DNA of 64,000 nt, from positions 289-64,288 of the forward strand of contig JAURFW010000002.1 of assembly GCA_030834125.1 (NCBI GenBank), given 5' to 3'. Each line of letters starts with the position of its first letter. Positions within the stretch are counted from its first letter, which is position 1. This document shows, piece by piece, positions 30,233-53,681 of the stretch. The notes beneath the pieces were generated by a model, which did not search any database, was not told the DNA's origin, and saw only the letters and a program-made list of their open reading frames with translations. Source of the DNA: Bacteroidota bacterium (GTDB lineage: Bacteria; Bacteroidota; Bacteroidia; NS11-12g; UBA955). Both the position numbers and the translations under genes were made by a program.

Positions 30233-30997
30233 ATGAACAATAATAACCTTAAGGATTATTTAGAGAGAGGATTTGTATTTTTTGATAATTATACCGTTAC
30301 CATAACGGAAGATCTTGAAAACAAAATTACGGGATCAGCACATTCGGTTAAGTTTTATGAATCTGATGGTGAAACTATCAGATCCTTTTATGGGTTTCAT
30401 AGGGATACCCATATCAAGGAATGGATTCAGCTACAAAAGCCGATACAAGAAATTTGTAAAAAAATATATCCAAATGAAGATATTTATATTCATCAGTCAA
30501 AAGTAAATATCAAAAACACCATAGAAAGTTCAGTTTGGCCATTTCATCGTGATTTCCCATTTTGGAATGTTTTTGATGGTATTGCTGATAATAGGCTGTT
30601 GAATGTAGTAATATTTATGGATGATGTAAATGAAGATAATGGCGCATTAAGTTTTATACCAGGGAGCCAAAAGTACTTTCTTGAAAGGGAAAAAGAATTT
30701 GCAAAACAGGGCTACAGTTTGGAAGGTTCGGCTTCGAATAATTTAAATTTTGATTTTAATCAATATGAAGTTGAAGCATTCAAACTTAAATTTGGAAATG
30801 AACTAATAACTGGTCCTAAAGGGTCGATTGTAATATTTAACCCAAATTTAGTGCACGGATCATCTTTTTCGACTCAAGATTTTAGCAGAAAATTAATGTT
30901 ACTCACTATTAATGTTTGTACCAATAAGCCTAAAATTCCAGCTATCCGCCCCGATTATTTATGTTCAACAGACTTTTCCCCGATAAAGTGGAATTAA
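30233..30997 (+). CDS. PhyH-family Fe(II)/2-oxoglutarate-dependent dioxygenase, a candidate amino-acid hydroxylase.
   Basis: 254 aa. 'VWPFHRDF' (H-x-D) and a distal 'NPNLVHGSS' His. Its stop is 6 nt before the NRPS-1 ATG. Confidence 0.65.
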   Translation: MNNNNLKDYLERGFVFFDNYTVTITEDLENKITGSAHSVKFYESDGETIRSFYGFHRDTHIKEWIQLQKPIQEICKKIYPNEDIYIHQSKVNIKNTIESSVWPFHRDFPFWNVFDGIADNRLLNVVIFMDDVNEDNGALSFIPGSQKYFLEREKEFAKQGYSLEGSASNNLNFDFNQYEVEAFKLKFGNELITGPKGSIVIFNPNLVHGSSFSTQDFSRKLMLLTINVCTNKPKIPAIRPDYLCSTDFSPIKWN

Positions 30998-31002
30998 AAG
31001 AA

Positions 31003-34000
31003 ATGAATCATAAAGAATATTGGTTAGCCTATTTGGAAATGATTCCAAAATTTTCATATGAATCCTTTTACACTGAAGAGCAAATAACAGAAAATATAGT
31101 GCTACCTGAAAGTTTGTCTAGATTATCTAAAATGAATAGTCACAACGCACAACTTTTACTAGCCGTAAGTATTTCAAAGTTGTTTAGTTTAAAAAATATT
31201 TTTGAAAACGTTTCTATAGAATTAGTTAACCAATATATTCCACTTCCAGATTGCAACGAACAAATTCTGAGTGATGCAGCCAAGAATGTTTTGACTAATT
31301 TTCGGCAACATTTAAATAATTTACCGGCAATTGAATTTCAGCCTTCATTAATAAACTTCTATCAACACGAGGCTAACAGGAAATCATTAATTAATTTCAA
31401 AATTGATGAATCCTTGAGCAAGTTGCAAGTGTTGATGCCGTCCAATTTTAAAACATTCGTAAATCTACTTTTCAAAGAAACATTCGATTTACTCGAAACC
31501 ATAGGAACCAATAAAGGAATTTCATTTTCTGATACACTCTTAAAGGAGTTTAATGGGATAAGCAGAAATAAGCTGCCAGAAATAGTTGAAAAATGCTGGC
31601 CAGAGATTCATGATTTCCCTTTAAAGCCCGAATTAAGTTACCTTGAAAATGGCGGAGATTCTATACAGGCAATTCGGTTACTTTCAAGGTTGCAGCGTGA
31701 TGGTTATTTTTCTGATCTCAGTAGCCTTATTAATTCAAAAAGTATTTTGGATTGGAAAATTGAATATCGAGGCGTTAGTAATTTATTACCAGATTCTAAT
31801 TTACGGACTTATCCACTTTCTGCAACTCAGAAATTAATTTGGGAAGATTGGTCTTCCTTAAACCAATTACATATTTACCATGAGCAGTTTCTTTTCAAAT
31901 TAGACAAATGTCCAACTTATGAAGTTATAAAATCTGCTTATGAATATATTTGGCAAAAATATCCGCAATTAAGGGTCAATATAGATTATGAAGAAAATGG
32001 CTTTATACAAATTGTCCAGGAGTCTAAAGCCGATTTTAGGATTATAAAAGGGAAGGGGATAGATGAGATTTTACAAGCTGATTTATCTGAACCTTTTGGA
32101 AAAATCCTGATGCGCTGTACTTTCATTGATTTAGATAAAGATAAATACATACTTTGGTCTCATCATCATGTTCTTCTTGATGGTTGGAGTGTAGGTAAAC
32201 TAATTGCTGAATTTATTGAAATTATTGAACGGGGAATACCAAAATTGACTATTTCACCAAACTATCAGCAGATTTTGCTAGGTAAAGAGAATTTAATAGC
32301 TAATGAAAATGAAACTGCATATTGGGAGAGTTTTTTCAATAATAGATCAGCTCTGGCACTTCCAAAAAAATCAGCAGAAAAGGGTGAATATGAAACGTTT
32401 ATTGCAAAATTAGATAATATTGAAAATTTCCGAAGTGCTTCGGAAAAGGCAGCGGTTAGTCTTCAGAGCTATCTGCTGACACATTTTTTTCTGACAGTTT
32501 TTAGTATTAATGGAAAAAATAATACTTATTTACATAGTATATCTTCCGGAAGAAGTTTAATTCCGGAATACGCAGAAGAAGCTGTTGGCCTATTTATTAG
32601 AAACATAATTCCAGGTTTTGAAATCAAAGAAGACGATACTATACTGAGTCTTCTCCAAAATTTTCACAAAGATTTTATCAAGACGGTTGAAATGGAATTT
32701 ACTTCACCGGAATTAATAAATTCTTATCAAGAAGAGCGTCCCGATGTGCTTTTTGTTTTTGAAAACTACCCGTATCAAACTATTAAAGGCGATAAAATAA
32801 GCGGTGAATTAATTGATAATCATGAATTAACAGGCTATCCATTTAGTTTTCTAATTATGCCTCAGGATGATTGTCTAAATATAAAAATCATTTATGATAG
32901 TGGAAGATTTAGTTCAGAGTTTATTTCTACTTTCTACCATAAGTTTAGCTCACTGCTATTACATTTTAAAGCCAATCTGAACGATAAAGTTTATCAATTG
33001 GAAGATAGCCTCAATAAACTATCCATAATCAATGATAAGTTTCCATTTTGGTATGATGAGATTATTCGTAAAACGTCAAAATCAAAAAATCAAATTAGCA
33101 GTTCTAGGAGCGAAGAAAAAATTGCTTTCAATAAGATAGAAAATCTTGCTGCCAGTTTCAGTAATTATTTTAAAGATTTGCAAAAGGGCAATCGAATTGC
33201 TGTTTTTGGCGAAAAGAATGAAAAATTACCAGCAATAGCATATTCTATTATGCGAAATGGTTTTGTATATCTGCCCATTAATATTTCATGGCCTTTAGAC
33301 AGAATTAGTAAAACACTTAAACTTGCTGAATGCAGTCATATAATTATCACGGATGATTCTCCTTCATTGGAATTGCCTGATTACTTGACCATTCATAAAG
33401 ATGTTTTTAGTATAGAATCTGATATTTCAATAAATTATCGACCTGAATTGGATGATGAAGCATATTTGCTTTTTACATCAGGATCAAGTGGCATGCCAAA
33501 GGGGGTAAGCCTTAGCCATAAAAATCTATCCTCATTTCTAGATGCTTGTACTGAATATTGTGACCCAAACAATTATGAATTAATTTTTAGTTTTACTAAT
33601 ATCGGTTTTGACCTCTCAATTTTTGAAAATTTATATGGATTGTATTCCGATAAGTCAATTCATGTCATTCATAAACCAATTCATTTGTGGGAAGAATTAC
33701 AAAAGTTTAATGGAATATTGCTAAATACAGTACCTTCTGTAATTATTAATCTGAAAAGGGAAGAAATAAAAAATATTTCTGTTTTACATACAGCAGGAGA
33801 ACCTTTTAGAAATTCTGCCTGGGAACTTTTAAAAGAAGGAAATCCAAACATAAAAATTTTCAATTGGTATGGACCTACTGAAACAACTACTTATTCCACG
33901 TGTGTAGATTTAAGTGATGCATACTCAGCTTCTATCGGTAAAGCTCTTAAACACGAACTTATATTTATAACCGATGCATTGGGACTTAAACAAATGGATG

Positions 34001-35937
34001 GATTGGATGGAGAAATAATTATTGGTGGAGAAGGTGTTGGAAGATATTTAATTAATGAAAATGAGAAATTCCTTTGCAAATCGGAACTCAATTTTTACCG
34101 AACTGGAGATAGAGCCTTAAGAAAAAATGGACAAATTTATCTGAGGGGTAGAGAAGATCGCCAAGTGAAAAGATTAGGCCAAAGATTCGAACTTTCAGAA
34201 ATTGAACTTTGGATTATAGCCAATTATAATCAAATAAAAAGAGTGTATTACTACAAAAGTAAAGATGAACAATTTTTACTTTTTCTTGAGACAGAAGTGC
34301 TAAAAGAAGCAGAAATAAAAACAGCACTTAGTAATCAATTTCCGGATTATATGTTACCAGAATTGATTAAAATAATGCCATCATTCCCTGAAAATGATAA
34401 TGGGAAAATGGATATCGGACAAATGTTGAAATCAATTGACAAGATTGATAATGCGGCCAAATCAGACTCTAAATTGCTTGCCTCTTTGAAGCAAAAAGAT
34501 GGTCTTTTCAAATCATTGAATGGTAACTTAAGTTTTACATCACAAGGAGGGGATTCAATCTTAGGGCTTAGAATCATAAGCAAATTGAAAAAAATGGGCT
34601 ATCGAATTGAGATTTCAGACCTACTAAATGCTGAAAGTCTTAATGAATGTTTCAGTAAACTTAGAATTGAAGAAATAACTACATCTTCTATTACAGAAGA
34701 TTTAGTTTTATTAAGCCCTATTCAGAAGTGGTTCAAGGAAGATTACAAAGGAAATCTAAATCATTTTAATCAAAGTGTTTTGCTTGAGCTTTTCATCCCA
34801 TTAAGTACCGAAGAGATTTTTACAAAGGTTAAAATTTGTTTCAATTCAATAGATCTTTTAAAAAGAAGTTTTAATAGTAAATGGGAAGAAGCCCAATCTC
34901 CAATTTTTCAAATTATTAATATTCAAGATCATACAGATATAACTGCTCATTGTGAAATACTTCAAAGATCTTTCAATTTGATCGATGGCCCCGTTGCTGC
35001 AATTGCCATTTTTAAAAGTCCTAATAGTGTTTTCCTTTTTATTAGTATACATCATTTTTACTGTGATGGAATCACTTGGAGGATTTTGATGGATCGTTTA
35101 CAAGATTCACTTACAGGAATCGAAAGTAGTCAAACTGATATTCAGGTTTTCGGAAGGGTCCAAGCAGCATGTAGAGATTTTGGTCAATTAGATGAAAAAG
35201 ACAATTATTATCCCAATATAATTTCCAATCCATTTCAGAATTTACAAGTTTGTTCGTACAAACAGTCAGAATTTAGAAACATTGAGTGGAACGCAAATCG
35301 AAGCAATCATTTTTTAAAAAATTGGAATAAAGAACATACTGTAAATGAAAAATTTGTGAGCTTTTTTCTACATAGTTGGTTAAGAGCTAAACAACCAAAA
35401 ACCGCAATTTTTTTAGAAACTCACGGTAGACAATATTCGGGAATTCCGGAAATTACAGAATCTATTGGTTGGTTTACCCAGTTTTATATGTTGAGCGAAA
35501 ATGACTATCCTTCACAAAAAAATGAAATCAATCATTACGTTAAGCAAAGTTTCTCGAAACTACCAAATAATGGTCTAGGCTATATGGGCATGAGTAATTG
35601 GCAAACCCCCCCATTCCCTATTTTACTAAATTTCCTAGGCAGTTTTGATGAAAACTGGAATTCTATGGCAAGACCGGTAAATTTTGATGAAAGTAATCAA
35701 GTCGATCCCGATAATCCTATGTTAGCTTTTGTTGAAATAAATGGAATTATACTCGAAGGAAAAATAAGATGGATGTTTAGAACTCATCCTGAAGTCCCAA
35801 TTGATTTATTTGTTGCAGAATGGGAAAAATCAGCTATTGATTTACTTTCTAGCGATTCAGATATATACAGTAACGAGAATATTGATAAGGATGACATAGA
35901 CAAAATATCTCAAATACTCAATATTCCTGATTTATGA
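31003..35937 (+). CDS. NRPS protein 1. An unassigned ~200-aa N-terminal region, then T - C - A - T - E.
   Basis: The ORF track has 30961..35937; the likely start is the ATG at 31003. T0 'LENGGDSIQAIRL' (~31651). C 'HHHVLLDGWS' (32161-32190). A: A2-like 'RNGFVYLPIN', A3 'LFTSGSSGMPKGV' (~33469), A4 'FDLS', A5 'NWYGPTETTTYST', A7 'YRTGDRA', A8 'GREDRQVKRLGQRFELSEIE', A10 'NGKMD'. T1 'QGGDSILGLRI' (~34543). E domain 'PIQKWF', 'HHFYCDG' (35050-35070), 'ETHGRQ' (~35416). Acidic C-terminal tail. Confidence 0.9.
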   Translation: MNHKEYWLAYLEMIPKFSYESFYTEEQITENIVLPESLSRLSKMNSHNAQLLLAVSISKLFSLKNIFENVSIELVNQYIPLPDCNEQILSDAAKNVLTNFRQHLNNLPAIEFQPSLINFYQHEANRKSLINFKIDESLSKLQVLMPSNFKTFVNLLFKETFDLLETIGTNKGISFSDTLLKEFNGISRNKLPEIVEKCWPEIHDFPLKPELSYLENGGDSIQAIRLLSRLQRDGYFSDLSSLINSKSILDWKIEYRGVSNLLPDSNLRTYPLSATQKLIWEDWSSLNQLHIYHEQFLFKLDKCPTYEVIKSAYEYIWQKYPQLRVNIDYEENGFIQIVQESKADFRIIKGKGIDEILQADLSEPFGKILMRCTFIDLDKDKYILWSHHHVLLDGWSVGKLIAEFIEIIERGIPKLTISPNYQQILLGKENLIANENETAYWESFFNNRSALALPKKSAEKGEYETFIAKLDNIENFRSASEKAAVSLQSYLLTHFFLTVFSINGKNNTYLHSISSGRSLIPEYAEEAVGLFIRNIIPGFEIKEDDTILSLLQNFHKDFIKTVEMEFTSPELINSYQEERPDVLFVFENYPYQTIKGDKISGELIDNHELTGYPFSFLIMPQDDCLNIKIIYDSGRFSSEFISTFYHKFSSLLLHFKANLNDKVYQLEDSLNKLSIINDKFPFWYDEIIRKTSKSKNQISSSRSEEKIAFNKIENLAASFSNYFKDLQKGNRIAVFGEKNEKLPAIAYSIMRNGFVYLPINISWPLDRISKTLKLAECSHIIITDDSPSLELPDYLTIHKDVFSIESDISINYRPELDDEAYLLFTSGSSGMPKGVSLSHKNLSSFLDACTEYCDPNNYELIFSFTNIGFDLSIFENLYGLYSDKSIHVIHKPIHLWEELQKFNGILLNTVPSVIINLKREEIKNISVLHTAGEPFRNSAWELLKEGNPNIKIFNWYGPTETTTYSTCVDLSDAYSASIGKALKHELIFITDALGLKQMDGLDGEIIIGGEGVGRYLINENEKFLCKSELNFYRTGDRALRKNGQIYLRGREDRQVKRLGQRFELSEIELWIIANYNQIKRVYYYKSKDEQFLLFLETEVLKEAEIKTALSNQFPDYMLPELIKIMPSFPENDNGKMDIGQMLKSIDKIDNAAKSDSKLLASLKQKDGLFKSLNGNLSFTSQGGDSILGLRIISKLKKMGYRIEISDLLNAESLNECFSKLRIEEITTSSITEDLVLLSPIQKWFKEDYKGNLNHFNQSVLLELFIPLSTEEIFTKVKICFNSIDLLKRSFNSKWEEAQSPIFQIINIQDHTDITAHCEILQRSFNLIDGPVAAIAIFKSPNSVFLFISIHHFYCDGITWRILMDRLQDSLTGIESSQTDIQVFGRVQAACRDFGQLDEKDNYYPNIISNPFQNLQVCSYKQSEFRNIEWNANRSNHFLKNWNKEHTVNEKFVSFFLHSWLRAKQPKTAIFLETHGRQYSGIPEITESIGWFTQFYMLSENDYPSQKNEINHYVKQSFSKLPNNGLGYMGMSNWQTPPFPILLNFLGSFDENWNSMARPVNFDESNQVDPDNPMLAFVEINGIILEGKIRWMFRTHPEVPIDLFVAEWEKSAIDLLSSDSDIYSNENIDKDDIDKISQILNIPDL

Positions 35938-38900
35938 GAAAAGAGGATATTTTATCAATAGTTCCGTTATTACCCGCTCAGCAATATATGCTTGCTGCAT
36001 CTGTAAAAGATGGGCAATCGACCTATATTCAACAATTGGTTTTCAAGGTAAGGAATTATGACGGTAAAGCTATTGAAGAATCAATAAACAAGTTAGTTCA
36101 AAATTATGAGTGTTTTCGTTCTTTAATTCTTTTTGAAGGATTAAAACAGGCTGTTTGGGTGAGTATTAAAAATATCACTCCCAAATTCATATATCATCAA
36201 ATTAATGAAGCGGAATTGGATGAATTCTGTAAAAACAGACTTGAGCAAGGCTTTAAGTTGGATAAGGAAGTAGCTATGAAATTAGATTGGATTGAGAGCC
36301 AATCAGATAATTACCTTCTCATCACATATCATCATCTTCTATTTGACGGTTGGGGGCGTCAAAAAATTTTGAGTGAGGTGCTTTTTGCGCTTAAATTTCC
36401 CAGAGCCTCCATTAAGCCAAAACTGAATATTAATTGGTATGAAGCATGGAAACAACTCAATCATAATGAGGCTTTAAATGCATATAATACCTACCTAACA
36501 AGGTTTGATACTTTTGCAAGTCTTACACAACTAGGCCAAGGTCAAAATAAAAACTGCACACATTCCATCTCAATTGAGGAGATTCAAATTTCGAAAGCCG
36601 CAAGAAATCTAAATTTAACTCAGGCGGAATATGTTCTTTTTTCATGGGCTTGCTTTATTTCAAAATGGACAAATACAAGCAAAGTGCAATTGGGACAAAT
36701 TAAACAAAATGGCCTGATTGATAGTTGCAGAGATGGTTTTGGTCTGGGTATTCAAACCCTCCCATTTCAATTGGATATTGACTTTAATGTTACTATTGCA
36801 GAAACATTAAAAGTATTCAAACAAAGAGAGCGCAAACTAACAGATTACAGCTTTGTTGATACTACCAATGAAATTTTCCAACAGATTACTTACGATTTCA
36901 TTATTGCCTTTGAAAATTATCCAATAGAAAATTCATTGGTTGATTTTGAACATGATTTTATATTAATAAAAAATTATGATTTCTCTGAATTTCCACTCAG
37001 TTTGGCTATTAGTCCAAATAATGGAAAATTAATTTTTGACTGGCATTATAATCAAAAACAATATTGTCAAAGACAGATTGAAACGGTTGCTAAACATTTT
37101 ATTGAGTGCCTTGAAAAATTGCCGGTGAATATTGATTCTAGACTATGCAATTTGCGATTTTGGGAACCGAAACCTATACCACAATTCAAAATTAAAACAT
37201 CTCAAGAAGATTTTTTTTCAAGGATTGAGAAACATATTATTCAGGGGGGAAGAGAAGAACTCTACATTCAGCTCAAGAAATATTTTCAAAAATATAATAT
37301 AAATAGAGTTTGGATTATTGGTGACAAGCATAGCAATTCAGATTTACTCATATGTGCAGCTTGGTATTGCAAAATTGAAGTTTTAAGTCTTAATGAAAAA
37401 GAGTCCGCAGCATTCGTAATGCACCTTCATGATGAGTATTCCGCTGATCTGATTTTTACAAATGTCTCACCTTCTAGTTTTCCAAAAGCCATTTCAATGG
37501 ATTGTTTGGATAACCTACCAGAAAATCCGAATTCGAAATTATCAAAAAAATCGGATGTGGCACTTTCTATTTGTACTTCAGGATCAACAGGTAGGCCAAA
37601 GGTAGTTCAACTGAATTTAGAAAATTTAATTGCTTTTTTTGAAGCATGGGAAAAGAAATTACCTTGGAAATCAAACGAAGTTTTTGCTTCAATCGCGCAC
37701 CCTGCCTTTGATATTGGAGTAGCCGAACTTATTTTCCCACTATGGAAAGGTTTTCAAACAAAACTTATTTCAAAGGAGACGTTGTCAGATCCTATATTGC
37801 TAAATAGAGAATTACATGATGTAACAGCCTTTCATATGGTTCCTTCTTTGCTTGAGAACTGGATAGAAAATTCTCCGGCAGATAATAAAAATAGAATTGT
37901 GATGACAGGGGGGGATAAAGTGCCTTCGAATTTGCAATCTAAACTATCAAAGAAATTTCCAAACGTTCGACTATTTCAATTTTACGGGCCATCGGAATGT
38001 TCAGTTTTATCTTCTGGATTTGAAAATACAGGAGATTTTGAAAATCACTTTTCTCCTTTAGGTACAAATTTTGATCACTGCGAACTTTTTGTTTTTTCAA
38101 AAGATATTAATCAGTCTGCCCCTTTTCAAGAGGGAGAAATAATTGTTTGTGGTCCAGCTGTTGGTTTGGGTTATGCTTTCGATAATGAGGATAATAAGTT
38201 TTTCTATTACAAAGGGCAAAAGGCCTACAGGACAGGAGATTTCGGATTTTTTGATGAAAATGGGAACTTGTTTTTCAGAGGCAGAAAAGATAATCAAATA
38301 AAAATCAATGGTCAGCGAATTGAACTTTCCAGGATTGAAACTGCTTTATCAGAATGGTCGTCAATTGAACATTGGGTTACTGTCAGTGATGGATTTAAAC
38401 TTTTTGCATTTGCCAAATCTGAAAAATCAAAGATTGAGAAACGTAGACAGGATTTACAAAATTGGTTGCCTTTTTATGCAATGCCGCATTTAATCCACTA
38501 TGTGAATGAATTTCCACTCAATAAGAATGGCAAATTAGACCGGCAACAATTAATTGAGTTAGGTAAAAAATTAGTTAATGTAAATATAGATTCAGCAATA
38601 GATGCTGATATTGATTTGTTATTCAAGGAACTTTTTCCAAATAGAGTTATAAATACAGCACTTTCTTGGTATGCTAATGGATTAAACTCGATAGATGCTC
38701 TTAAATTTTCTGGTTTGCTTAAGTCAAAACTGAAATTTACTATTGAAATAAATCAAATCCTTAGTATTGAAAGACTCACATCATTGAATTCATTAAAAAT
38801 TAAAGTTAATGATGAACCAGAAGAAATCACTATCAAGCCAGGTCAGGAGCTTTATTCAACAGCTGCAAGGATTGTATTTCTATCGGAATCAGATGATCAA

Positions 38901-43685: not shown

Positions 43686-43692
43686 TAAAAAT

Positions 43693-46416
43693 ATGATTTC
43701 ATTAAATCAATATCAACTTCTATTTTTCAATCGCGAAATAAATTTTGGAAATTCAGCATCTAATGTGCTAAAAGGTTATGCTGAAATAAAATCTGCAAAT
43801 TTTGAAAGGCTGTATGATTCCGTAAATACAGTATTGAAAAAATCTGAATGGACCTATCTCAGCATAGATAAGAATAGCAGTAGTTGGATAATAAAAGATT
43901 CATGGAATGGAAGATTAGAGAAGTCAATATTTTTACCCGAAATAGCTATTGATAAACATTTATGGACAGTACAACTTGTTAAGGATGAAGATTCTGATAA
44001 AATTAGATTACATCTATTCCTGCATCACTGTTTAGCCGATGCACATTCTTTCAATCTTTTTTGGGATGCTGTTTTTAACCAATATCAAAATGGAATCTTT
44101 GAAATAGCACCACTTTTTCCGGAATTGAGCTACAGTAAAGGTCAATTAAATCAAAATAAAAAAAATCTACGGACAGACTTAGGAATTGGGAGCATCCGAA
44201 GAATTTCATTGAAATTCAATCAAAGAATAAAAAGGCATTTGATTACTCTTGCTAACCAAAACGGAACTAGCTTAATGTCGATGTTGCTTGAATATATTGA
44301 GAATGAACTTGAAAATTGTGAAGGTGATCTTGAAATCCCATTGAAATTAGGAATAGCACTTCGAAATCGAAGAAATGTTAATCAAAAAAATGCATTTCCT
44401 ACTGTAGTAAATTTTTTGCCATTACAGGAGGATAGCAACCTTAGTATGCAACAAAAGGTAATGCAACTGTTTCGCTATCAGGACTATCCCTTGATGAATT
44501 ACCTGAATGACAATAAACTACCATTAGCATTTAATGTGCTTTTTTCTTATCAAAAAGAATATTATTTAGTGGAAGATGGATTTGAATCAAAATTTACATT
44601 TGAAGCATCAACTAGTGATGACAATATACTAGGCATTCATCTCCTTGAATACGATGATGACAGTTTCATGCTTCATCTTGATTATAGAATTGATATTGCT
44701 TCGGAATCCTATTGGAAGTCAGTGCTTCGGAAAGTAAGTCGAAAAATTACTGCGGACTATTTAAAAATTCCTGATAATCGAGAAGTCAAGAATATTGCGA
44801 TACTTTATCCCAAAACAACTCAGTTAAATGATTTTTGGTATTATTTTGATCAAGCGCCTTCAGAAAAAATAGCATTAATATGTAATGATTATTGTTTGAC
44901 ATTTGCTGAAATTAGAAAACGCATTTCAGGGATTAAATTCAATCCTGAATTGAAACTTCATAGATTAATGCCTGAACGAACAATCGAAAATATTATTGAA
45001 TTATTGGCAGCATGGAAAAATGGAATAACGGTTACGTACCAACAATTAGATGATTTCAAAGAACCAGTAGGATCTAATGCTTCATTCGTTTTACAAGAAA
45101 CTACCGCCTATATTGCTCAAAGTAGTGGTACAACCGGTGAACAGAAAACCATTCAGATTTCATTCGATGGACTTTGTAGTCTTATTCCTGATTGGAAATT
45201 GAACTTTAAAACCGGAGATAGTTATCATCTTTGTTTGGCCGATCAAAGATTTGATGTGTTTTTTGGTGATTTACTTCGCAGTATTATTAGTGGAGAAACT
45301 ATGGTATTTGCAACTGATGATGAACGGCTGAATGCATTGAAAATTGATAGACTGTTAAGGGAATATGGTGTAAGTCATTTTGAATCTACTCCTTCTTTTT
45401 TAAGTTATTTGTTGCCAGAAATAACAGATCTTTCAGGAATCAAAGTAATAATATGTGGTTCTGAACCAATTCAAAAAGGTTTTTATGAGTCGCTTCAACA
45501 AAGCAGATTTAAAGATATTGATTTTTTTAACAGTTATGGTTTAACTGAATGCAGCATAGATACTGCAATTGCCAGGTTAAAAAGAGATAAAGAAGGTCGT
45601 TTCCCATCTGGATTTCCAGTTGGCGATCAGATAATTAGTATTAGAGATACTAAATTAGGGCTTAAACCCAAAGGAATTTGGGGAGAAATTTACATTGAAG
45701 GAAGCTGTGTTGGAATCCAATCTTGCAAAAATGATTCTTATAGAATATTCAAGACTGGAGATTGTGGAATGATAACAGAAGATGGATTAATTGTTAACGG
45801 AAGAATTAATGAAGATTTTATCAAAATAAATGGAAGAAGAGTACCTTCAGCCATGATAGAACAATTGACATCATCAATTAATGGAGTAAAGAATTGTCTT
45901 TGTATGGAAGTAAGGAACATGGCTGTACTATTTGTATTTGGTAATTCAGATGTTCAAATTATTCGAACAAGTCTCTCTAAAGTTCTCAGTCGTTATCAAC
46001 AACCAGATGATTATTTTTTCTGCTCAGAATGGCCTATCAACCAAAATGGAAAATCCGACAGAAAAAAACTCCTTGAGTGGTACCAACAGAAAAATATTAA
46101 TAAACAATCATGGCAACCGGGAACACATCCTTCAGATAAAATACTTTTTGAATGCCTTAAATCAAGAGAAAAATTATTTGGCGCTGCAAACGATTCTCTT
46201 ATTTCTTTTGGTTGGAATAGTATTGAACTATTATCATTGGCAAATGAATTGAATATGAAAGGGGTTTTTGTCCCTTTAGCTTCATTTATTCAAAATCCAA
46301 GTATTTCATTTATTCTCGAATCTGCAACTCAGAAACAAAAAATTGAAAATAGAGAAAACCCCGAAGCCGATGATTTCGACATTGATGATATATTGTCTAT
46401 ATTGAATAATAATTGA
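43693..46416 (+). CDS. NRPS protein 3: an N-terminally short C domain (candidate starter C), then A - T, and an acidic C-terminal tail.
   Basis: 907 aa. C 'LHLFLHHCLADAHS' (~44023), which sits only ~112 aa from Met1. A 'AQSSGTTGEQKT' (~45121), 'FDVF', 'NSYGLTECSIDT', 'FKTGDCG', 'NGRINEDFIKINGRRV', 'NQNGKSD'. T 'FGWNSIELLSLANEL' (Ser codon at 46219-46221). Tail '...ENPEADDFDIDDILSILNNN'. Confidence 0.85.
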   Translation: MISLNQYQLLFFNREINFGNSASNVLKGYAEIKSANFERLYDSVNTVLKKSEWTYLSIDKNSSSWIIKDSWNGRLEKSIFLPEIAIDKHLWTVQLVKDEDSDKIRLHLFLHHCLADAHSFNLFWDAVFNQYQNGIFEIAPLFPELSYSKGQLNQNKKNLRTDLGIGSIRRISLKFNQRIKRHLITLANQNGTSLMSMLLEYIENELENCEGDLEIPLKLGIALRNRRNVNQKNAFPTVVNFLPLQEDSNLSMQQKVMQLFRYQDYPLMNYLNDNKLPLAFNVLFSYQKEYYLVEDGFESKFTFEASTSDDNILGIHLLEYDDDSFMLHLDYRIDIASESYWKSVLRKVSRKITADYLKIPDNREVKNIAILYPKTTQLNDFWYYFDQAPSEKIALICNDYCLTFAEIRKRISGIKFNPELKLHRLMPERTIENIIELLAAWKNGITVTYQQLDDFKEPVGSNASFVLQETTAYIAQSSGTTGEQKTIQISFDGLCSLIPDWKLNFKTGDSYHLCLADQRFDVFFGDLLRSIISGETMVFATDDERLNALKIDRLLREYGVSHFESTPSFLSYLLPEITDLSGIKVIICGSEPIQKGFYESLQQSRFKDIDFFNSYGLTECSIDTAIARLKRDKEGRFPSGFPVGDQIISIRDTKLGLKPKGIWGEIYIEGSCVGIQSCKNDSYRIFKTGDCGMITEDGLIVNGRINEDFIKINGRRVPSAMIEQLTSSINGVKNCLCMEVRNMAVLFVFGNSDVQIIRTSLSKVLSRYQQPDDYFFCSEWPINQNGKSDRKKLLEWYQQKNINKQSWQPGTHPSDKILFECLKSREKLFGAANDSLISFGWNSIELLSLANELNMKGVFVPLASFIQNPSISFILESATQKQKIENRENPEADDFDIDDILSILNNN

Positions 46417-46432
46417 TAATATTTTAATCGTC

Positions 46433-46822
46433 ATGCATGAAATACAATTACCTCAAACAAGTTTCTACTACTTAAGAAATCATCCTTTAAAAGGAATGGG
46501 TGTATATTCATTGAGAGATTTCAAGATAGGTGAAATGATTTCAAAGAACTACGTTGCAATAATTGATTGGGAAATGGATGAAAATTCATCTTTTCAACAA
46601 CACTATCCAATGTATTGGACAGAGGAATTTGCTTGTATTGCATTTGGGATAATAAACCTTGTTAATCACAGCTCAAAGCCAAATTGTAGAATTAAAATAG
46701 ATTATGATTCTCAAACTATAGCTCTTTTAAGTAAAAAAGTAATTAATGCAGAAGAAGAATTAACAATTGATTATGGTGATGAACATTTTCCATTTAAATG
46801 TGGTAAAGTAAAAATTTATTAA
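46433..46822 (+). CDS. Small SET-domain protein, a putative protein/peptide lysine N-methyltransferase fold.
   Basis: 129 aa. 'GMGVYSLRDFKIGEMI' resembles the SET N-region G-x-G...I-x-x-G-E. 'LVNHSSKPNCRI' matches the NHSC-x-PN core with Cys to Ser. 'EEELTIDYGDEHF' matches the ELxxDY motif. It sits between NRPS genes 3 and 4 on the same strand. Confidence 0.6.
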   Translation: MHEIQLPQTSFYYLRNHPLKGMGVYSLRDFKIGEMISKNYVAIIDWEMDENSSFQQHYPMYWTEEFACIAFGIINLVNHSSKPNCRIKIDYDSQTIALLSKKVINAEEELTIDYGDEHFPFKCGKVKIY

Positions 46823-46895
46823 CCAAAGACCTTAGATGATAAAATATTAAACTAGTCATTCTGAATTTTTATTATAAATTATGTGAAAATACAAT

Positions 46896-49800
46896 TTGAA
46901 AAGGTCTGTTCTAATGAGAAATAATTACAATAAAGAAGATATTGCAGCAGTTTTCAAAACGCATTTTGCCGAACAGAGCCTTATCGTCATGGACATGGAT
47001 AAAGCGCAGAATTCGGAGTACATTGAAACAGCTCTAGTTAAAATTCAGGATCGCATTCTTCAGAAAAATGATATTGAAAACTGGGTTCAATCTATTCCGC
47101 GCTTTCGAGATGTATTTATTTATGAAAAACTGGAAGAGCCTGTTAGGGTAAGACTTAAAACAATCAACCCATCGATTGAAATTATTGATGCCAATAATTG
47201 GGATGATTCCAAAATCTTAGATTGGCTTGATACACAAGATTTGAATTTAAATATACAGCAAGGCCCATTATTCAAAATTTTCATTTTTAAAAGTGAAAAC
47301 TCCTCATATTTAGCTTGTTGTTATCATCATCTTCTTTTTGATGCTATTTCTATTCAATACGCCTTTGCTTCCTTATTAAAAGGGACTAATATTTCTTTTA
47401 AAGAATGGATACCTGTAAATGAAAATAATAAACAGATTAAAGTTGATGAAGTCGGATTTGAGATGCAAAATTTCGTTCCTCAACCGATAAAAGGAGTAGA
47501 CCAATTTTTATATGAAGAACTAGAACTGCCTGAATTGCATTACAAGGATTTTATGGCAAAATGGGCGGAGTTCATCTTTTTGGCCACAGGAGAAGATCAA
47601 ATTTGCATTGGTGAAGTTTTTAGCCTAAGAAATACAGAGCCTGCTGCGCAGGATGCTATTGGCTATTATGTGCAGACTTGGCCTTTAATACTAAAAAGTA
47701 ATTCTAGTATTAAAGAAGATATTGAAATTCAACGCTCAAAAATTCTAAAACATTTAGATAAGCCTGTACAGTCTTTATATCCCACTGGTCTTTTCGATCA
47801 TTGTTGGGTACTTGAACCAGAAATAAAAAGTGAATATAAAGCAATTTTTAGATCACGTCCACATTATTTACTTTCTATTGTAATTAAAGCAAATAATGAA
47901 GGTGTTTCACTTTGCTTTGTCTGGAATTTAAATAAAATTACTAAGCCAGCAGCTAAGGAAATAATAAATTCATTTAATGAATTTGTAAATAGTAAAAATG
48001 CGATAAAAAAAATAAATAAAGAGTCTTATCAACTTAAGCCTATCAATTATATTTGGACAGAAAAAATTAATTTAAATCCAGATAAAATTGCTGTTCGAGA
48101 TTCAAAAGGAAATAAATTAAGTTATAAGCAGCTTGAAGATCTTTCAGATTCCTTAGCATCTGTCTTGGATGTTAAAATACAAGAGCCTGTAGGAATAAGA
48201 ACATCTAATTCTGTTCTATTAATTGTTTCTATGTTGGCAATTTTAAAAAAGAGGGCAATATATGTACCCTTAGATCCAGAAATATCTGACGAAAGATTTA
48301 AATATATAATAAACGATGCCAATATTAACACTATTATCAGTGATTTAGAGGCAGTGCCTTTGAAAACAATGATTCATCCCATACAAAATAAAGTATCAGG
48401 GGTGCCAATGGATTTAAAGCCTGATTTAAATGATATCTGTTATCTGATTTATACTTCTGGAACTACGGGGCAGCCTAAAGGGTGTTCAGTAATGCAGAAA
48501 AATCTGAGCAACTTGTTTATTGGTACAGCATTGAAATTCGATTTTAAGAAAGACGATTCATGGATTCTTGCTCATAGCTATGGGTTTGATTTTTCAACAT
48601 GGGAAATTTGGGGAGCATTGCTTAATGGAGCTTCACTTTACATTCCTGACCGTAAAGATGTTAAGGATAGCTTTAAATTCTACAAAATATTACAACAGGA
48701 AGAAATAACTATACTTAATCAAACCCCAAAAGCCTTTGAAAATTTAATGATTGTTGGTGAATCAGAAGCACAATTAAGTAAACTACGATATCTGATTTTT
48801 GGCGGTGATAAATTAAATTTTCAAAAGATTTATAATTGGCAATTAAATAATGCTAAGGTAAAGGCAGTAAATATGTATGGTATTACAGAAACCACCGTTC
48901 ATGTTACTTTTAAGGAGGTTGAAGTTGAAGAATTTAGTAATATTGGCAATCCACTTCCTGGGTATGCACTTTCACTTAGAAATGTAAAAGGAAATATAGT
49001 ACCCGATGGTTTTATTGGAGAATTGTATGTTGAAGGAAGCGGCGTTTGCAATGGTTATTTCCAGAAAGAACAATTAACCGCAGAGAAGTTCGATTTTCAG
49101 AAAAACCCAACATATAGGAGTGGCGATTTGGGTTGGCGCATGAATAATGATTTCTATTATTTAGGAAGAAATGACCGTCAAATAAAAATAAGAGGATATA
49201 GGATTGAACTTGGTGAAATTGAATTTTTACTTCAAAAAGAATTTAAGAATCTTTTTAAAATACTTTTTATTAATAACAAGCTATTAGTTGCATTCCATAC
49301 TTGTCCTTTTGACATTGATAGATCCATGTGTATCTCGCTACTCCCAGAATATGGTATTCCTTCAAGGTTTATTAAATTAAAAGAAATTCCCCTTAATGTT
49401 AATGGAAAAACTGATGAAGAAGCTTTAAAAAATATTTTAAATGAAGTTCAAAAAGACAAATCAAATGGGACCGATGATTTGTTTTCATATTTTTCAAAAG
49501 TTTTAGGTAATAATTTAGACTTACACAGAAGTTTCATTGAAAATGGAGGTGATAGTATCAGTGCAATCAGGCTTATAAATACCCTTCGTAAGGATAATTT
49601 TAATCTTTCAATTCAAGATCTTTTTACAACCTCATCTCTTTCTCAATTAAAATTGAAAAAACTTAATGAGAATAGTATTAGAGAAAGTTGGATGAATGAT
49701 CCATTAATTGATACTTTAAATTTAGAAAATCAATTAAAAATTGATGGAGTATTTCCGCTAAGTGAGTCTCAAATTGGTATTTTATATGACAGTTTAGCTG

Positions 49801-52800
49801 GAACAGAAGATGTTTACATGGTTCAATTAACTTATGAAATTGGGTCTGATATTACCGTAAAACAGCTTCGCAAGGCATATTTAAATGTAATGCATGCTTT
49901 GCCAGCACTTCAACTTCAAATAAGAAAACACGAAGACACATTTCTTTGGGTATTACCCAAAGAACCTTTAGTAGAAATAGAACAGCTTGATTATTCCGGC
50001 AATCTAAATGATTTTCTTGCATCGGACTTTAAAAAACCATTTGATTTTTCTAAAAATTTAATGCGATTAAGTATTTTAACTAATGAGAATGGAAATAGTC
50101 AACTAATTTGGACTCATCATCATATTTTAATGGATGGATGGTCATTAGGGTTGTTTAGTAAATTATTATTTGAATCTCTAAAGGGTAATCCAATAATTAA
50201 GCAAACTTCATATTTGGATTTTTTATACAGCTTTAAAGACAAAAAATCATCCAATGAAACATATTGGAAATCTAGATTAGAGAAATGTAGTAATGATCCG
50301 TTGATACCATATCTAACTAAAGGTGAAGAATCGGATAATTATGGAGAGTTTGTATTAGAAATTAATGAAATCCCGTTATGGCGCGAACTTACCCATTCAG
50401 GACTAACTCAACATAATTTTGTTTATTCGGCTTGGCTTGCATTTTTAACAGCAGTTTTCAATAAAAATGAAATAAATATCGGAAATGTAATTTCTTTAAG
50501 AGAAGGTAATCTTGTTGAAGAGGTCGGTATGTTTATTCAAACTTTACCGTTTTATATGGCCACTGTTAAAGATGAATTATTTTCAGACTTTTCCGGTAGG
50601 GTGAAACATCAACTGCTCGAGGATATCGAACATAAGGAATTATCATATAAAACCCTTGAAGGAATAAATTTAAATTTAGACCATATTTTCGTTTTTGAAA
50701 ACTATCCAATTGATGAATCTGTATATGATAACTCATCTATCAGTATTGGGGAGTTTAAAGAAAGAACTGCCGCTAAATGGACCTTGATTTGTTATCCCAC
50801 TCAGAAAGGAATAAAAATTAGAACCTTGTTTCAAGGTGATTTTTATAATTCTGAATATGTAGGAGAGATAATGAGGAGGTTTGCAGAATTTATCCAAAAT
50901 ATTCATTGGGATTATAAAATAGGTTCTATTCCAAAATATATTACTAAGGCACCAATTCTGGAAGGTAAAAATAAACCTTTGCCGAAAATAGATAATCTAT
51001 TCGACTATTTTACCTCCAATGATGGTTTTAAAATTATCAGTATCAATGATGAGCTAACTGATGTCGATATTCACAATAAAACTAAAAGAATTGCGATAAA
51101 ACTCAGTGAACTTGGAATTGAAAATAATGAAGCTGTGGGAATCGACTTAAAATCAGTAAGTAATTTTGTTATTGCTGTATTGAGCATTTGGAAAGTTAAT
51201 GCGGTTCCTTGTTCAGTAGATTATCGTTATCCACAACAACGAAAATCATTTATTTGGGAAAATGCATCTTGCCGTTTTGTTATCTTAGAGAAAGATGGTG
51301 AAATATTTATTGAAACCAATGAATTTCCAAAAATGATGCAATCTGCAGATGCTTCGTTCATTCTTCATACCTCTGGATCAACAGGAATACCTAAAGGGGT
51401 TATTCAGACGAAAGACTGTTTGATTCATTTGGCTAATTGGACTGCAACTGAACTTGGATTAAACAAGAAGGATAGAATTTTAGCACTTTCCTCATTCGGT
51501 TTTGATGCTTCATATCACGAAATGATATTATGGCTTTCACTTGCAGGAACGCTTGTTGAAATGCCATACGAATCGAGACAGGATATTCAAGAAATTAGAA
51601 AATTTATTATTTCCAAACAAATAAGTATTGCTTGGATTCCTGCACGACTTCTAAATTCGATACTTGAAATTGAGCCCTTCTATTTCGATGAATGTCAATC
51701 TCTTAAACAAATTGTCACAACAGGAGAAGCATTGATTATTGGCGAAGCTCTAAGTAATTGGGTAAAGCGTGAAAATATCAGATTATTTAATTTTTATGGA
51801 CCTACCGAAACCCATGTGGTAACTGCGAAGGTTATAGATAAAAACAATATCTCAACAATCCCAGACATTGGCCAACCTATTAATAATGCCGCAATTGGTA
51901 TTTTCAACAGCGATGGGGAACCGGTACCAAAGGGATTTACTGGAGAATTATTCATTTCCGGTCCATACCTGGCTAATGGATATTTAAAAGACGAAGATTT
52001 AGATAGTAAAAAATTTGTTTATCGAAATAATGTAAGGTGGTATAAAAGCGGTGATATCGGTTGGTTTAATGAAAATCAAAATATTGAATATCTGGGTCGT
52101 TTAGATGATCAGATTAAAATAAGAGGTTATCGAATTGAGCCATTTGAGGTGGAATCTCTAATTCATAAAGTTGAGGGGGTAAAACAGGTCGCCATCGCGG
52201 TTGATAAAACAGAAGAAACAAAACTGATTGCTTTTTGGACAGGTAAAAAGATATCGGATATGGAATTTCGAAAAAACTGTTTGAAAATTTTACCAGAATT
52301 TATGATTCCCGAGGTTCAAATTTATCTCGATAGTTTGCCAAGAAATATTAATGGAAAAATTGATCGTAAATTACTGTTAGAAAATTATTTTTCAAATAAA
52401 GAAGCTACATCTAATAGTATACCTAATAGCTCGGGCTCTCGTTGTTGGAAAGCTATTTTGGGACATGAAAATTTTAGAAAAAATTCACAATTTCTGTCTG
52501 TAGGTGGTAATTCAATTAAAATTATGCGAATGCAAGCCTGGTTAGAAAAAAATTATGGAATATCTTGTACTGTAAAAGAGCTAATAATAAATCAAACAAT
52601 AGCCGAACTTGATGATTTGATTATTAAAAAAGATGCGGAAAGCACATTTTTATTACCGGATGCTATTCCCTTAAATAAGCTTCAAGATGATTTATTACTT
52701 GCAGAAGAAGGTAATTATATCTCTAAGGATTCTCCTTTTTTATTGTCTTTCACCTGCGACATGACGAAAAAATATGAAATCAATGAATTTGAAAGAGCAA

Positions 52801-53681
52801 TTGAATATGTTTTCGAGTGTTATCCGCATTTAACCTATGTTTTCGATAATAATCAAAAACGCAAACGGTTTGTAAAATGCGAGAACTTTAGAGAATTTAT
52901 AAAAGTCCCACTCCATAAAGATTCATTGCAATCCGCAGAGCCGTTGTTGAGAATTTTCCAGGAGGATGGTAAATTGACAGTCCAATGGCATCATATTGTA
53001 CTTGATGCGGTAGGCATTTCAATATTCATGCAAACCTTTTATTCTTTATTAGAGGGTGAAGAAACTAGAATTAAACGAAGTTATAATTCCTTTTTACAAC
53101 AACATAGTATTAAAAATATTGCAAAAACGGAAAGTTCATCAAAAGAATGTATAGTGTTCAATAAAATTATTGGACCTGATGAAAAAAAATTACTTGAAAT
53201 TCTTGGTATTGAATTAAAACTAAGTTTACATGATGTATTTTTATTGGTGTCGCATAGTCTTTTTGGTCTTGAAAGCCTTATTGCCTATACGGATAATGAA
53301 CTGCAATGCGGAATACCCGGAATGTTTACATTTTTAAATTGTAGTAGTGTAACTGAAAAAGGATGTATACTTCAAAAAAATGTAGTAAGTGATAAAAAGG
53401 TTTCAATGGTAACTAACTTTATGTATGCTCCCGAACTTCCGATTGATGTTAATATTGAATCGTCTGCTGTGAAATTATGTAAGTATCTTTATGAATTTCA
53501 AATTGAAGTATTTGAAGATAAAATTCAGTTGCAATTTATTTGTGAATTTGATAATAAATCGTCTGAGGATAAAGCAAATCAACTATTTAATAATATTGAC
53601 AAATTATTAGTTGAAAAGTCATTTCAAGCATTATTTGATCGAAGAAACAATGAGATTCATTTTGAAGATTTTGATTTTTAA
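46896..53681 (+). CDS. NRPS protein 4: C - A - T - C - A - T - C, ending in a condensation-type domain with no T or TE.
   Basis: 2261 aa. C1 'YHHLLFDAIS' (~47322). A1 'LIYTSGTTGQPKG' (~48454), 'FDFS', 'NMYGITETTVHVT', 'YRSGDLG', 'GRNDRQIKIRGYRIELGEIE', 'NVNGKTD'. T1 'ENGGDSISAIRL' (~49541). C2 'THHHILMDGWSLG' (~50112). A2 'FILHTSGSTGIPKGV' (~51367), 'FDAS', 'NFYGPTETHVVTA', 'YKSGDIG', 'GRLDDQIKIRGYRIEPFEVE', 'NINGKID'. T2 'SVGGNSIKIM' (~52491). C3 'WHHIVLDAVG' (~52989), about 400 aa to the stop. Confidence 0.9.
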   Translation: MKRSVLMRNNYNKEDIAAVFKTHFAEQSLIVMDMDKAQNSEYIETALVKIQDRILQKNDIENWVQSIPRFRDVFIYEKLEEPVRVRLKTINPSIEIIDANNWDDSKILDWLDTQDLNLNIQQGPLFKIFIFKSENSSYLACCYHHLLFDAISIQYAFASLLKGTNISFKEWIPVNENNKQIKVDEVGFEMQNFVPQPIKGVDQFLYEELELPELHYKDFMAKWAEFIFLATGEDQICIGEVFSLRNTEPAAQDAIGYYVQTWPLILKSNSSIKEDIEIQRSKILKHLDKPVQSLYPTGLFDHCWVLEPEIKSEYKAIFRSRPHYLLSIVIKANNEGVSLCFVWNLNKITKPAAKEIINSFNEFVNSKNAIKKINKESYQLKPINYIWTEKINLNPDKIAVRDSKGNKLSYKQLEDLSDSLASVLDVKIQEPVGIRTSNSVLLIVSMLAILKKRAIYVPLDPEISDERFKYIINDANINTIISDLEAVPLKTMIHPIQNKVSGVPMDLKPDLNDICYLIYTSGTTGQPKGCSVMQKNLSNLFIGTALKFDFKKDDSWILAHSYGFDFSTWEIWGALLNGASLYIPDRKDVKDSFKFYKILQQEEITILNQTPKAFENLMIVGESEAQLSKLRYLIFGGDKLNFQKIYNWQLNNAKVKAVNMYGITETTVHVTFKEVEVEEFSNIGNPLPGYALSLRNVKGNIVPDGFIGELYVEGSGVCNGYFQKEQLTAEKFDFQKNPTYRSGDLGWRMNNDFYYLGRNDRQIKIRGYRIELGEIEFLLQKEFKNLFKILFINNKLLVAFHTCPFDIDRSMCISLLPEYGIPSRFIKLKEIPLNVNGKTDEEALKNILNEVQKDKSNGTDDLFSYFSKVLGNNLDLHRSFIENGGDSISAIRLINTLRKDNFNLSIQDLFTTSSLSQLKLKKLNENSIRESWMNDPLIDTLNLENQLKIDGVFPLSESQIGILYDSLAGTEDVYMVQLTYEIGSDITVKQLRKAYLNVMHALPALQLQIRKHEDTFLWVLPKEPLVEIEQLDYSGNLNDFLASDFKKPFDFSKNLMRLSILTNENGNSQLIWTHHHILMDGWSLGLFSKLLFESLKGNPIIKQTSYLDFLYSFKDKKSSNETYWKSRLEKCSNDPLIPYLTKGEESDNYGEFVLEINEIPLWRELTHSGLTQHNFVYSAWLAFLTAVFNKNEINIGNVISLREGNLVEEVGMFIQTLPFYMATVKDELFSDFSGRVKHQLLEDIEHKELSYKTLEGINLNLDHIFVFENYPIDESVYDNSSISIGEFKERTAAKWTLICYPTQKGIKIRTLFQGDFYNSEYVGEIMRRFAEFIQNIHWDYKIGSIPKYITKAPILEGKNKPLPKIDNLFDYFTSNDGFKIISINDELTDVDIHNKTKRIAIKLSELGIENNEAVGIDLKSVSNFVIAVLSIWKVNAVPCSVDYRYPQQRKSFIWENASCRFVILEKDGEIFIETNEFPKMMQSADASFILHTSGSTGIPKGVIQTKDCLIHLANWTATELGLNKKDRILALSSFGFDASYHEMILWLSLAGTLVEMPYESRQDIQEIRKFIISKQISIAWIPARLLNSILEIEPFYFDECQSLKQIVTTGEALIIGEALSNWVKRENIRLFNFYGPTETHVVTAKVIDKNNISTIPDIGQPINNAAIGIFNSDGEPVPKGFTGELFISGPYLANGYLKDEDLDSKKFVYRNNVRWYKSGDIGWFNENQNIEYLGRLDDQIKIRGYRIEPFEVESLIHKVEGVKQVAIAVDKTEETKLIAFWTGKKISDMEFRKNCLKILPEFMIPEVQIYLDSLPRNINGKIDRKLLLENYFSNKEATSNSIPNSSGSRCWKAILGHENFRKNSQFLSVGGNSIKIMRMQAWLEKNYGISCTVKELIINQTIAELDDLIIKKDAESTFLLPDAIPLNKLQDDLLLAEEGNYISKDSPFLLSFTCDMTKKYEINEFERAIEYVFECYPHLTYVFDNNQKRKRFVKCENFREFIKVPLHKDSLQSAEPLLRIFQEDGKLTVQWHHIVLDAVGISIFMQTFYSLLEGEETRIKRSYNSFLQQHSIKNIAKTESSSKECIVFNKIIGPDEKKLLEILGIELKLSLHDVFLLVSHSLFGLESLIAYTDNELQCGIPGMFTFLNCSSVTEKGCILQKNVVSDKKVSMVTNFMYAPELPIDVNIESSAVKLCKYLYEFQIEVFEDKIQLQFICEFDNKSSEDKANQLFNNIDKLLVEKSFQALFDRRNNEIHFEDFDF

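Follow-up and report, generated by a model that had tools for sequence, protein, structure and literature searches.

Four nonribosomal peptide synthetases of a Bacteroidota gene cluster probably act in the order 3-4-1-2

Which of four nonribosomal peptide synthetases (NRPSs) starts the chain, and in which order do the others follow? The question is raised by a 64,000 nucleotide stretch of a Bacteroidota bacterium genome (GenBank assembly GCA_030834125.1, contig JAURFW010000002.1, positions 289 to 64,288), which is called the window here. It carries four NRPS genes, termed N1 to N4 by their position in the window. The assembly order sets the predicted peptide, and with a sound order the cluster family would become usable for structure prediction and heterologous expression. 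An earlier analysis of the letters alone (the sequence-only reading) had proposed, from domain logic, that the proteins act in the order 3-4-1-2. We find this order supported by the subtypes of the condensation domains and, independently, by the synteny of at least 13 related loci, and we infer the hand-off from N4 to N1. On balance, it seems probable that N3, N4, N1 and N2 form one assembly line.

Domain architecture

Domains were called with Pfam, motif scans and sequence searches of the Protein Data Bank (PDB). These searches returned the same four domain strings as the sequence-only reading (Table 3), and gave totals of 6 adenylation (A), 8 thiolation (T) and 8 condensation (C) domains, one epimerization (E) domain and one thioesterase (TE) over N1 to N4. 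Among the four proteins, the TE is found only in N2, the E domain only in N1, and a T-bearing N-terminal region also only in N1. The uniqueness of the TE and of the T-first protein had been noted before. The previous count of eight modules agrees with the number of C and T domains, but not with the number of A domains. Two modules lack the latter, namely C3-T3-TE at the end of N2, and the proposed module composed of the terminal C domain of N4 (N4-C3) and X-T1 of N1.

Strict alternation of the 8 C and the 8 T domains results when the proteins are placed in the order 3-4-1-2. The first domain is then the only Starter-type N-terminal C domain, and the last is the only TE. In the proposed assembly line, N3, with its Starter-type C domain, an A domain for ornithine (Orn) and a T domain, would start the chain and probably N-acylate the first residue. 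The acidic C-terminal helix of N3 would dock on the N-terminus of N4, which would add threonine (Thr) and then a third residue. The compact terminal C domain of N4 would condense the chain onto a residue loaded on N1-T1, in a module that is split between C and T over two proteins. This junction would probably be held by the FDxFDF tail of N4 and the X lobe of N1. N1 would then add a residue similar to alanine (Ala), which its E domain would epimerize before the chain passes to the DCL-type C1 domain of N2. N2 would add a residue of the hydroxyphenylglycine (Hpg) type, Orn, and finally the residue on its A-less T3, and the TE would release the product. Because N1-T1 and N2-T3 both lack an A domain, they would have to be loaded in trans.

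Alignments of homologues place the start of N1 at Met15 (31003), and the N-termini of orthologs point to Met7 as the start of N4. The start of N2 overlaps the stop of N1 by 4 nucleotides. In Pfam searches, N3-C (17.7 bits) and the terminal C domain of N4 (23.7 bits) stay below the gathering score of 30.6, and they emerge as clear members of the C superfamily with family profiles only. The catalytic second histidine is kept in all C domains. The second C domain of N2 has NHALLDG in place of HHxxxDG, with the first histidine changed.

Condensation domain subtypes

The C domains were scored against subtype profiles built from the supplementary alignments of Rausch 2007 (PMC1894796), a small reference set of 10 DCL, 10 Starter, 10 Dual and 8 LCL sequences. 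The E reference was GrsA-E. In addition to single sequences, family profiles made from orthologs (n=16 for N3-C) were compared with the subtype profiles by hhalign (Table 1).

Table 1. Scores of C and E domains against subtype references (bits for single sequences)
Domain	Comparison	DCL	Starter	Dual	LCL	E	Best described as
N2-C1	single sequence	120	42	41	45	10	DCL
N1-C	single sequence	109	34	20	40	-1	DCL
N4-C2	single sequence	147	67	27	65	4	DCL
N1-E	single sequence	12	17	1	14	72	E
N3-C	single sequence	8.9	25.3	1	13.5	1	weakly Starter
N4-C3	single sequence	10	13	11	16	4	
N3-C	family, hhalign	81.3	123.6 (E 7e-16)	42	81.7		
N4-C1	family, hhalign	150	99	70	91		
N4-C3	family, hhalign	87	97	62	59		
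N2-C2	family, hhalign	91	99	62	113		LCL-like
N2-C3	family, hhalign	83	121	23	115		Starter/LCL-like

The proposed passage from N1 to N2 had been based on an E domain at the end of N1 and a C domain at the start of N2, and both are present. By its motifs (HHFYCDGITW, ETHGRQ, IGWFTQFY, NGLGYM and LNFLGSFD) and by its matches to GrsA-E (5isw, 77.5 bits) and TycA-E, the last domain of N1 is a genuine E domain. N2-C1 is clearly of the DCL type, with 120 bits against at most 45 for the other subtypes, and 247 against at most 123 in the hhalign comparison. Every one of its top matches in the PDB is a C domain located after an E domain. For N2-C1 and N1-C alike, the best matches are SrfA-C, TycB1, the post-E C domain of bacitracin synthase 3 (BacC) and McyB-C1.

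At the other end of the line, N3-C is not an ordinary LCL domain. Its family profile reaches 124 with the Starter subtype, against 82 with LCL and 81 with DCL, and the domain scores best as a divergent C domain of the Starter type, in which the HHxxxD motif is intact. No domain precedes it in its protein, with the C1 motif from residue 3, and N3 heads a transcription unit of its own in four related loci (L004, L031, L033 and L036). The sequence-only reading had instead relied on the short distance between the N-terminus and the histidine motif. The histidines are indeed found early, at residue 111, but the short distance is not in itself a starter signature and mostly reflects the absence of a leader: from the C1 motif to the histidines, N3-C spans about 105 residues, and the other C domains about 101 to 122.

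Four C domains are DCL-like (N2-C1, N1-C, N4-C2 and, by leaning only, N4-C1), compared to a single E domain. The distribution of carrier motifs is of interest in this context. A GGDSI motif is typical of carriers that are partnered with an E domain. Here, it is present in N4-T1, N1-T1 and N1-T2, which are exactly the carriers in front of a strongly DCL-type C domain or the E domain, and the other five carriers have xxNS(I/F/L). In the enduracidin and ramoplanin systems, DCL-type domains are reported to epimerize. The DCL-type domains without a preceding E domain in the present cluster may either epimerize themselves, or be DCL by descent only. Dual E/C activity of N4-C2 and N1-C was considered and rejected, since the N-terminal HH(I/L)xxxxGD motif is absent and the Dual scores are low. 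The D-residue previously predicted at module 5 is backed by a genuine E domain, but the number of one is a lower bound, and probably too low because of the four DCL-like C domains. The discrepancy between DCL-like and E domains also bears more generally on the prediction of D-residues from sequence.

N4-C3 has no clear subtype. The domain has no PDB sequence match, it matches profiles only around the HHxxxD motif, and its subtype scores lie close together in a reference set that has no CT sequences. It is conceivable that it does not condense at all, but hands the chain on N4-T2 over to the free N1-T1 thiol or has another role; in that case, the T domains would outnumber the residues of the product. 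The absence of an A domain for N1-T1 and the short, atypical terminal C domain could be explained in this way, and so could the GGDSI motif of N1-T1 and the DCL domain that follows, as if this carrier presented the residue of the previous module for epimerization. However, the domain retains the HHxxxDG and C5-like motifs of condensing domains, and translocation of a chain from T to T by a C domain is without precedent to our knowledge. A non-condensing terminal domain therefore appears very unlikely, and condensation onto N1-T1 remains the preferred role.

Gene order in related loci

Related loci were found via N1 homologues (L008, L009 and L010) and by a scan anchored on the M28-family metallopeptidase gene downstream of N4. 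They were annotated by BLAST against the domains of the window. When contigs of related genomes were scanned with N3, the sole match was an unrelated locus of Emticicia. A metagenome contig from JGI carries an identical copy of N3. Freshwater and marine metagenomes commonly contain members of the family.

At least 13 loci have the gene order N3, N4, M28, (extras), aminotransferase, HmaS-like, FAD oxidase, phosphopantetheinyl transferase, (PhyH or methyltransferase), N1, (N2). The order N3-N4-M28 is invariant among the loci. N3 and N4 (15 loci) as well as N1 and N2 (L008, L009 and L010) are neighbours wherever both members of the pair are visible, often with overlapping genes. In L004, L031, L033 and L036, the unit headed by N3 diverges from the HmaS-like gene. 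The usual order in the relatives is colinear with the predicted order 3-4-1-2, and the non-colinearity in the window is thus a local block swap. As judged from the relatives, the order 1-2-3-4 is a swap of the N3-N4-M28-methyltransferase block and the tailoring-N1-N2 block. The window alone has N2 directly upstream of N3, an arrangement that is found in none of the 15 loci in which the upstream region of N3 is visible. The non-colinear order that the sequence-only reading had deduced is supported for the window, but it is not a property of the family, in which at least 13 members are colinear. Non-colinearity would in itself be unremarkable, as many NRPS clusters break the colinearity rule.

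Two blocks that can change places could also represent two assembly lines, either convergent or separate. N3 and N4 would then make an acyl-tripeptide, which the terminal C domain of N4 would release onto a free or side-chain amine, for example the delta-amino group of Orn in the N1-N2 product, and N1-T1 would be the independently primed loading site of a second line, with five carriers and the TE at its end. The blocks behave as separable transcription units and occur in three relative arrangements, Orn is predicted twice, and the terminal C domain of N4 is divergent, compact and without a clear subtype. N1-T1 lacks its own A domain and would have to be loaded from elsewhere whichever model holds. 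In contrast, 19 related loci contain both blocks (14 detected by the M28 scan, and L004, L008, L009, L027 and L037 via other cluster proteins), and the alternation of C and T domains is perfect in a single line. Moreover, the C-terminal tail of N4 and the always N-terminal X look like the two sides of a matched protein-protein junction. Several short contigs show only one block, and in L015 no gene of the second block is recognisable in the 6 kb that follow the M28 gene. Taken together, two lines seem unlikely, and we favour a single line.

Junctions between the proteins

The C-terminal tails of N1 and N3 are alike, with an acidic DD(I/L)DxIxxILN consensus (N3: DIDDILSILNNN), and so are the heads of N2 and N4, in which KEDI... 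runs into the C1 motif. This fits two junctions of one kind, from N1 to N2 and from N3 to N4. By the sequence resemblance of their tails and heads, both may be COM-type docking pairs.

The junction from N4 to N1 would be of another kind. N4 ends with HFEDFDF at its C-terminus, and an F[DES][DE]F[DN]F tail is present in 19 of 20 N4 orthologs, in which the terminal C domains are 22-65% identical. All N1 orthologs start with X, which is N-terminal in every homologue found. The FDxFDF tail of N4 and the X region of N1 co-occur, and both are conserved through the family. The NRPS docking classes that have been reviewed are COM, PAX and beta-hairpin only, all of them at T/C or E/C junctions (PMC9113145). 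A split junction between C and T with the features described here is absent from these classes (PMC9113145).

What is X? The region has no HHxxxD motif, it has no Pfam match and no PDB sequence match, and hhalign against the C domains of the cluster itself was negative. An AlphaFold2 model from 2 sequences was unusable (pLDDT 41), but a model from 6 sequences reached a pLDDT of 71 and a pTM of 0.71. With this model, Foldseek found RzmA (7c1k, probability 0.98, E about 1e-2) as the best match, together with CDA-C1, HtmB2-CT and a Cy domain. By hhalign, X can be aligned over its full length to the C-terminal lobe of each of the four subtype profiles (P 0.025-0.66), in a register that includes YW... 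and a C5 region with IPLPD versus INTLPxR. In addition, real C domains give secondary matches to the X profile in their C5 region. As judged from the alignments and the model, X is quite likely what remains of the C-terminal lobe of a C domain. A single C domain split over N4-C3 and X was also considered, and rejected, because N4-C3 has a C5-like motif and a C-terminal lobe of its own. The sole internal X match in a search for fusions, P0019, is an unrelated repeat protein.

It is tempting to go one step further. N4-C3 and X-T1 could constitute an undescribed NRPS interface, split inside a module between C and T and held together by the FDxFDF tail and the single-lobe X, with X as a docking or positioning platform in place of the missing A domain. 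It would occur in a widespread and uncharacterised cluster family of Bacteroidota, whose DCL domains preceded by GGDSI carriers epimerize without an E domain. We put this combined proposal forward tentatively, and regard it as doubtful rather than probable. The cluster family and the junction are still the more interesting result; the mechanism is what we infer. A conserved junction of this kind could provide a new docking type for NRPS engineering.

Several observations weigh against the assembly line as drawn. A fusion of N4 and N1, in which an N4-like C domain is joined to X-T, was not found in the protein search. The N4-C1 family leans towards DCL (150, versus 99 for Starter and 91 for LCL), although N3 lacks an E domain. 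The terminal C domain of N4 matches no subtype clearly, and a role in release or cyclisation is possible. The assignment of X to a C-terminal lobe is consistent, yet statistically weak by Foldseek and hhalign. Finally, a loader for N1-T1 or N2-T3 was not found, and the cluster contains neither a stand-alone A-T protein nor a SyrC-like shuttle.

Adenylation codes and predicted residues

The codes of the A domains (Table 2) were read against a fragment of GrsA, which itself reproduces DAWTIAAICK, and N4-A2 was read a second time by hand. The assignments of codes to substrates follow published codes. With the order 3-4-1-2, they suggest (acyl)-Orn-Thr-x-x-D-Ala-Hpg-Orn-x as the order of residues.

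Table 2. A domain codes and predicted residues along the proposed line
Position	Domain	Code	Predicted residue
1	N3-A	DVGEIGSIDK	Orn
2	N4-A1	DFWNIGMVHK	Thr
3	N4-A2	DAHWVTFVVK	no assignment
4	N1-T1	no A domain	
5	N1-A	DLFNHAWTYK	Ala-like, made D by E
6	N2-A1	DIAHMGFVLK	Hpg-like
7	N2-A2	DVGEIGSIDK	Orn
8	N2-T3	no A domain	

The identical codes of N3-A and N2-A2 (Orn) would be compatible with a different role of N3, as a stand-alone loader of the A-less N1-T1 and/or N2-T3 in the style of EndD or Ramo17. The line would then run from N4 via N1 to N2, with N4-C1 as the first C domain. A-less modules are known to be complemented in trans by proteins that consist of one module and have an unusual N-terminal region (PMC8949500), and the N-terminal domain of N3 is very divergent. 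This idea can also draw on the products. Hpg, Orn, Thr and D-Ala occur together in enduracidin and ramoplanin, whose synthetases have few or no E domains. However, the C domain of N3 is complete, keeps its HHxxxD motif and is of the Starter type by profile. The tail of N3 matches that of N1 as the head of N4 matches that of N2, and in each of the 15 loci where its position is visible, N3 lies immediately upstream of N4. We therefore think a loader function improbable, and keep N3 as the first protein of the line.

One of the related N1-like proteins, P0020 (L010, 5952-12533), is larger than the others, with 2193 instead of the usual approximately 1650 amino acids (aa), and has about 540 extra residues between C and A. 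Its A domain is closest to N4-A1 (Thr type).

Relation to known systems

The cluster shares C-A-T modules, a terminal TE, and a junction between an E domain end and a DCL start with NRPSs of the tyrocidine, gramicidin S and surfactin type. The same linear NRPSs also pair an acidic C-terminal helix with the head of a C domain (PMC9113145), as may be the case at the junctions from N1 to N2 and from N3 to N4. They differ from the present case in that here, one junction lies inside a module, between C and T, and four DCL-like C domains occur with one E domain.

The end of N2 resembles the A-less C-T-TE end of syringomycin synthetase SyrE, which is loaded by SyrB1 and SyrC (PMC8949500). In contrast to the SyrE system, there is no A-T protein, halogenase or SyrC-like shuttle here, and a second A-less T domain is located at the N-terminus of another protein.

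The enduracidin and ramoplanin systems (EndA-D and Ramo12-17), which were compared by description only, have more in common with the cluster. The similarities include an Hpg pathway, the predicted residues Orn, Thr, Ala and Hpg, an A-less module, a single-module protein with an odd N-terminus, and DCL-like C domains without a preceding E domain. The enduracidin system is reported in Yin and Zabriskie 2006. The differences are the number of carriers (17, versus 8 here), the origin (actinomycete versus Bacteroidota), and the N-terminus of N3, which is a recognisable Starter-type C domain in our case.

X can be compared with the X domain of glycopeptide synthetases and the interface domain of siderophore synthetases, which likewise have a C fold without the catalytic histidine, beside a carrier and with an oxygenase gene nearby. 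Those two are full two-lobe domains in internal or C-terminal position, whereas N1 X, of about 200 aa, has one lobe only and forms the very N-terminus of its protein. X thus differs from both in having one lobe, in its place N-terminal to T1, and in its alignment to the C-terminal lobe only. In addition, the adjacency to a PhyH oxygenase gene is not universal in the cluster family.

Cluster content and neighbouring genes

In the list of open reading frames (ORFs), the co-directional gene set spans 26286-55295 on the forward strand (Table 3).

Table 3. Features of the cluster (positions in the window)
Feature	Position	Strand	Content	Basis
Aminotransferase	26286-27365	+	class I/II	Pfam
HPPD-like dioxygenase	27373-28437	+	HmaS position	Pfam, NCBIfam
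FAD-linked oxidase	28430-29617	+	GlcD-like	Pfam
Phosphopantetheinyl transferase	29617-30231	+	Sfp-type	Pfam, NCBIfam
Fe/2-oxoglutarate dioxygenase	30233-30997	+	PhyH family	Pfam, NCBIfam
N1	31003-35937 (longest ORF 30961)	+	X(1-212)-T(S234)-C(HH402)-A-T(S1199)-E	Pfam, motifs, PDB searches
N1 X	31003-31596	+	residues 15-212	
N1 downstream of X	31573-35934	+	T1, C, A, T2, E, acidic C-terminal tail DIDKISQILNIPDL	
N1-T1	31573-31815		GGDSI carrier	
N1-T2	34456-34692		GGDSI carrier	
N2	35934-43685	+	C(HH133)-A-T(S919)-C(NHALLDG)-A-T-C(HH2020)-T(S2321)-TE(GYSMG 2444)	Pfam, motifs, PDB searches
N2-C2	38820-40088		NHALLDG	
N3	43693-46416	+	C(HH111, HHCLAD)-A-T(GWNSI)	Pfam, motifs, PDB searches
SET-domain ORF	46433-46822	+	129 aa, between N3 and N4	Pfam SET, E 8e-14
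N4	46914-53681 (longest ORF 46896)	+	C(HH144, HHLLFD)-A-T(S887)-C(HH1075)-A-T(S1873)-C(HH2032)	Pfam, motifs, PDB searches
N4 modules	46914-52652	+	C1-A1-T1-C2-A2-T2	Pfam, motifs, PDB searches
N4-T1	49461-49715		GGDSI carrier	
N4-C3 (terminal C)	52653-53678	+	342 aa, HHIVLD, C5-like GIPGMFT	
N4 C-terminal end	53661-53678		HFEDFDF	
Metallopeptidase	53681-54526	+	M28 family	Pfam, NCBIfam
Methyltransferase	54528-55295	+	S-adenosylmethionine-dependent type	Pfam, NCBIfam

The genes for the aminotransferase, the HPPD-like dioxygenase and the GlcD-like oxidase look like a pathway of the hydroxyphenylglycine type, and this precursor trio is conserved beside the N1-like genes in related loci. The dioxygenase scores 218 bits with the NCBIfam 4HPPD model, below the cutoff of 277, and is therefore taken as an HPPD-like paralogue. 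Literature searches found no report of an Hpg-containing NRPS from Bacteroidota.

The stop of the PhyH gene is located 6 nucleotides ahead of the N1 start. A PhyH gene is also found directly upstream of the N1-like gene in L003, L008, L009, L027 and L037, and its place is taken by a methyltransferase or a small 2-oxoglutarate oxygenase in other clades. X could recruit the PhyH hydroxylase to N1-T1.

The M28 gene directly follows the N4-like gene in every locus examined, with overlapping start and stop. The peptidase might serve to remove an acyl-residue leader from the N-terminus, or be connected with the tail of N4. The SET-domain ORF is lineage-specific, being confined to the identical contig L001 among all fetched loci, and N3 and N4 abut or overlap in the relatives. 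Its product could have a role in product methylation, or the ORF could be an unrelated insertion.

According to Pfam and NCBIfam, there is no stand-alone A-T protein, SyrC-like alpha/beta-hydrolase shuttle or halogenase in 26286-55295, and the Pfam scan of the window proteins detected no acyl-activating gene in the cluster. A scan for promoters and terminators gave no more sites than in shuffled sequence.

The fraction of G and C is 0.30-0.33 over 26001-56000 and 0.35-0.39 in the flanks, and it ranges from 27 to 51% among the related clusters. The dip and the range suggest a wide distribution or horizontal transfer. Just outside the cluster, the ORF 57513-60059 (848 aa) has no Pfam match at E<=0.001. 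On the other side, the reverse strand encodes a PKD-repeat protein (17273-19570), whose CHU_C signal for type IX secretion is the best taxonomic clue and points to Bacteroidota, and a cyclophilin-FKBP fusion, a peptidyl-prolyl isomerase (22286-23383).

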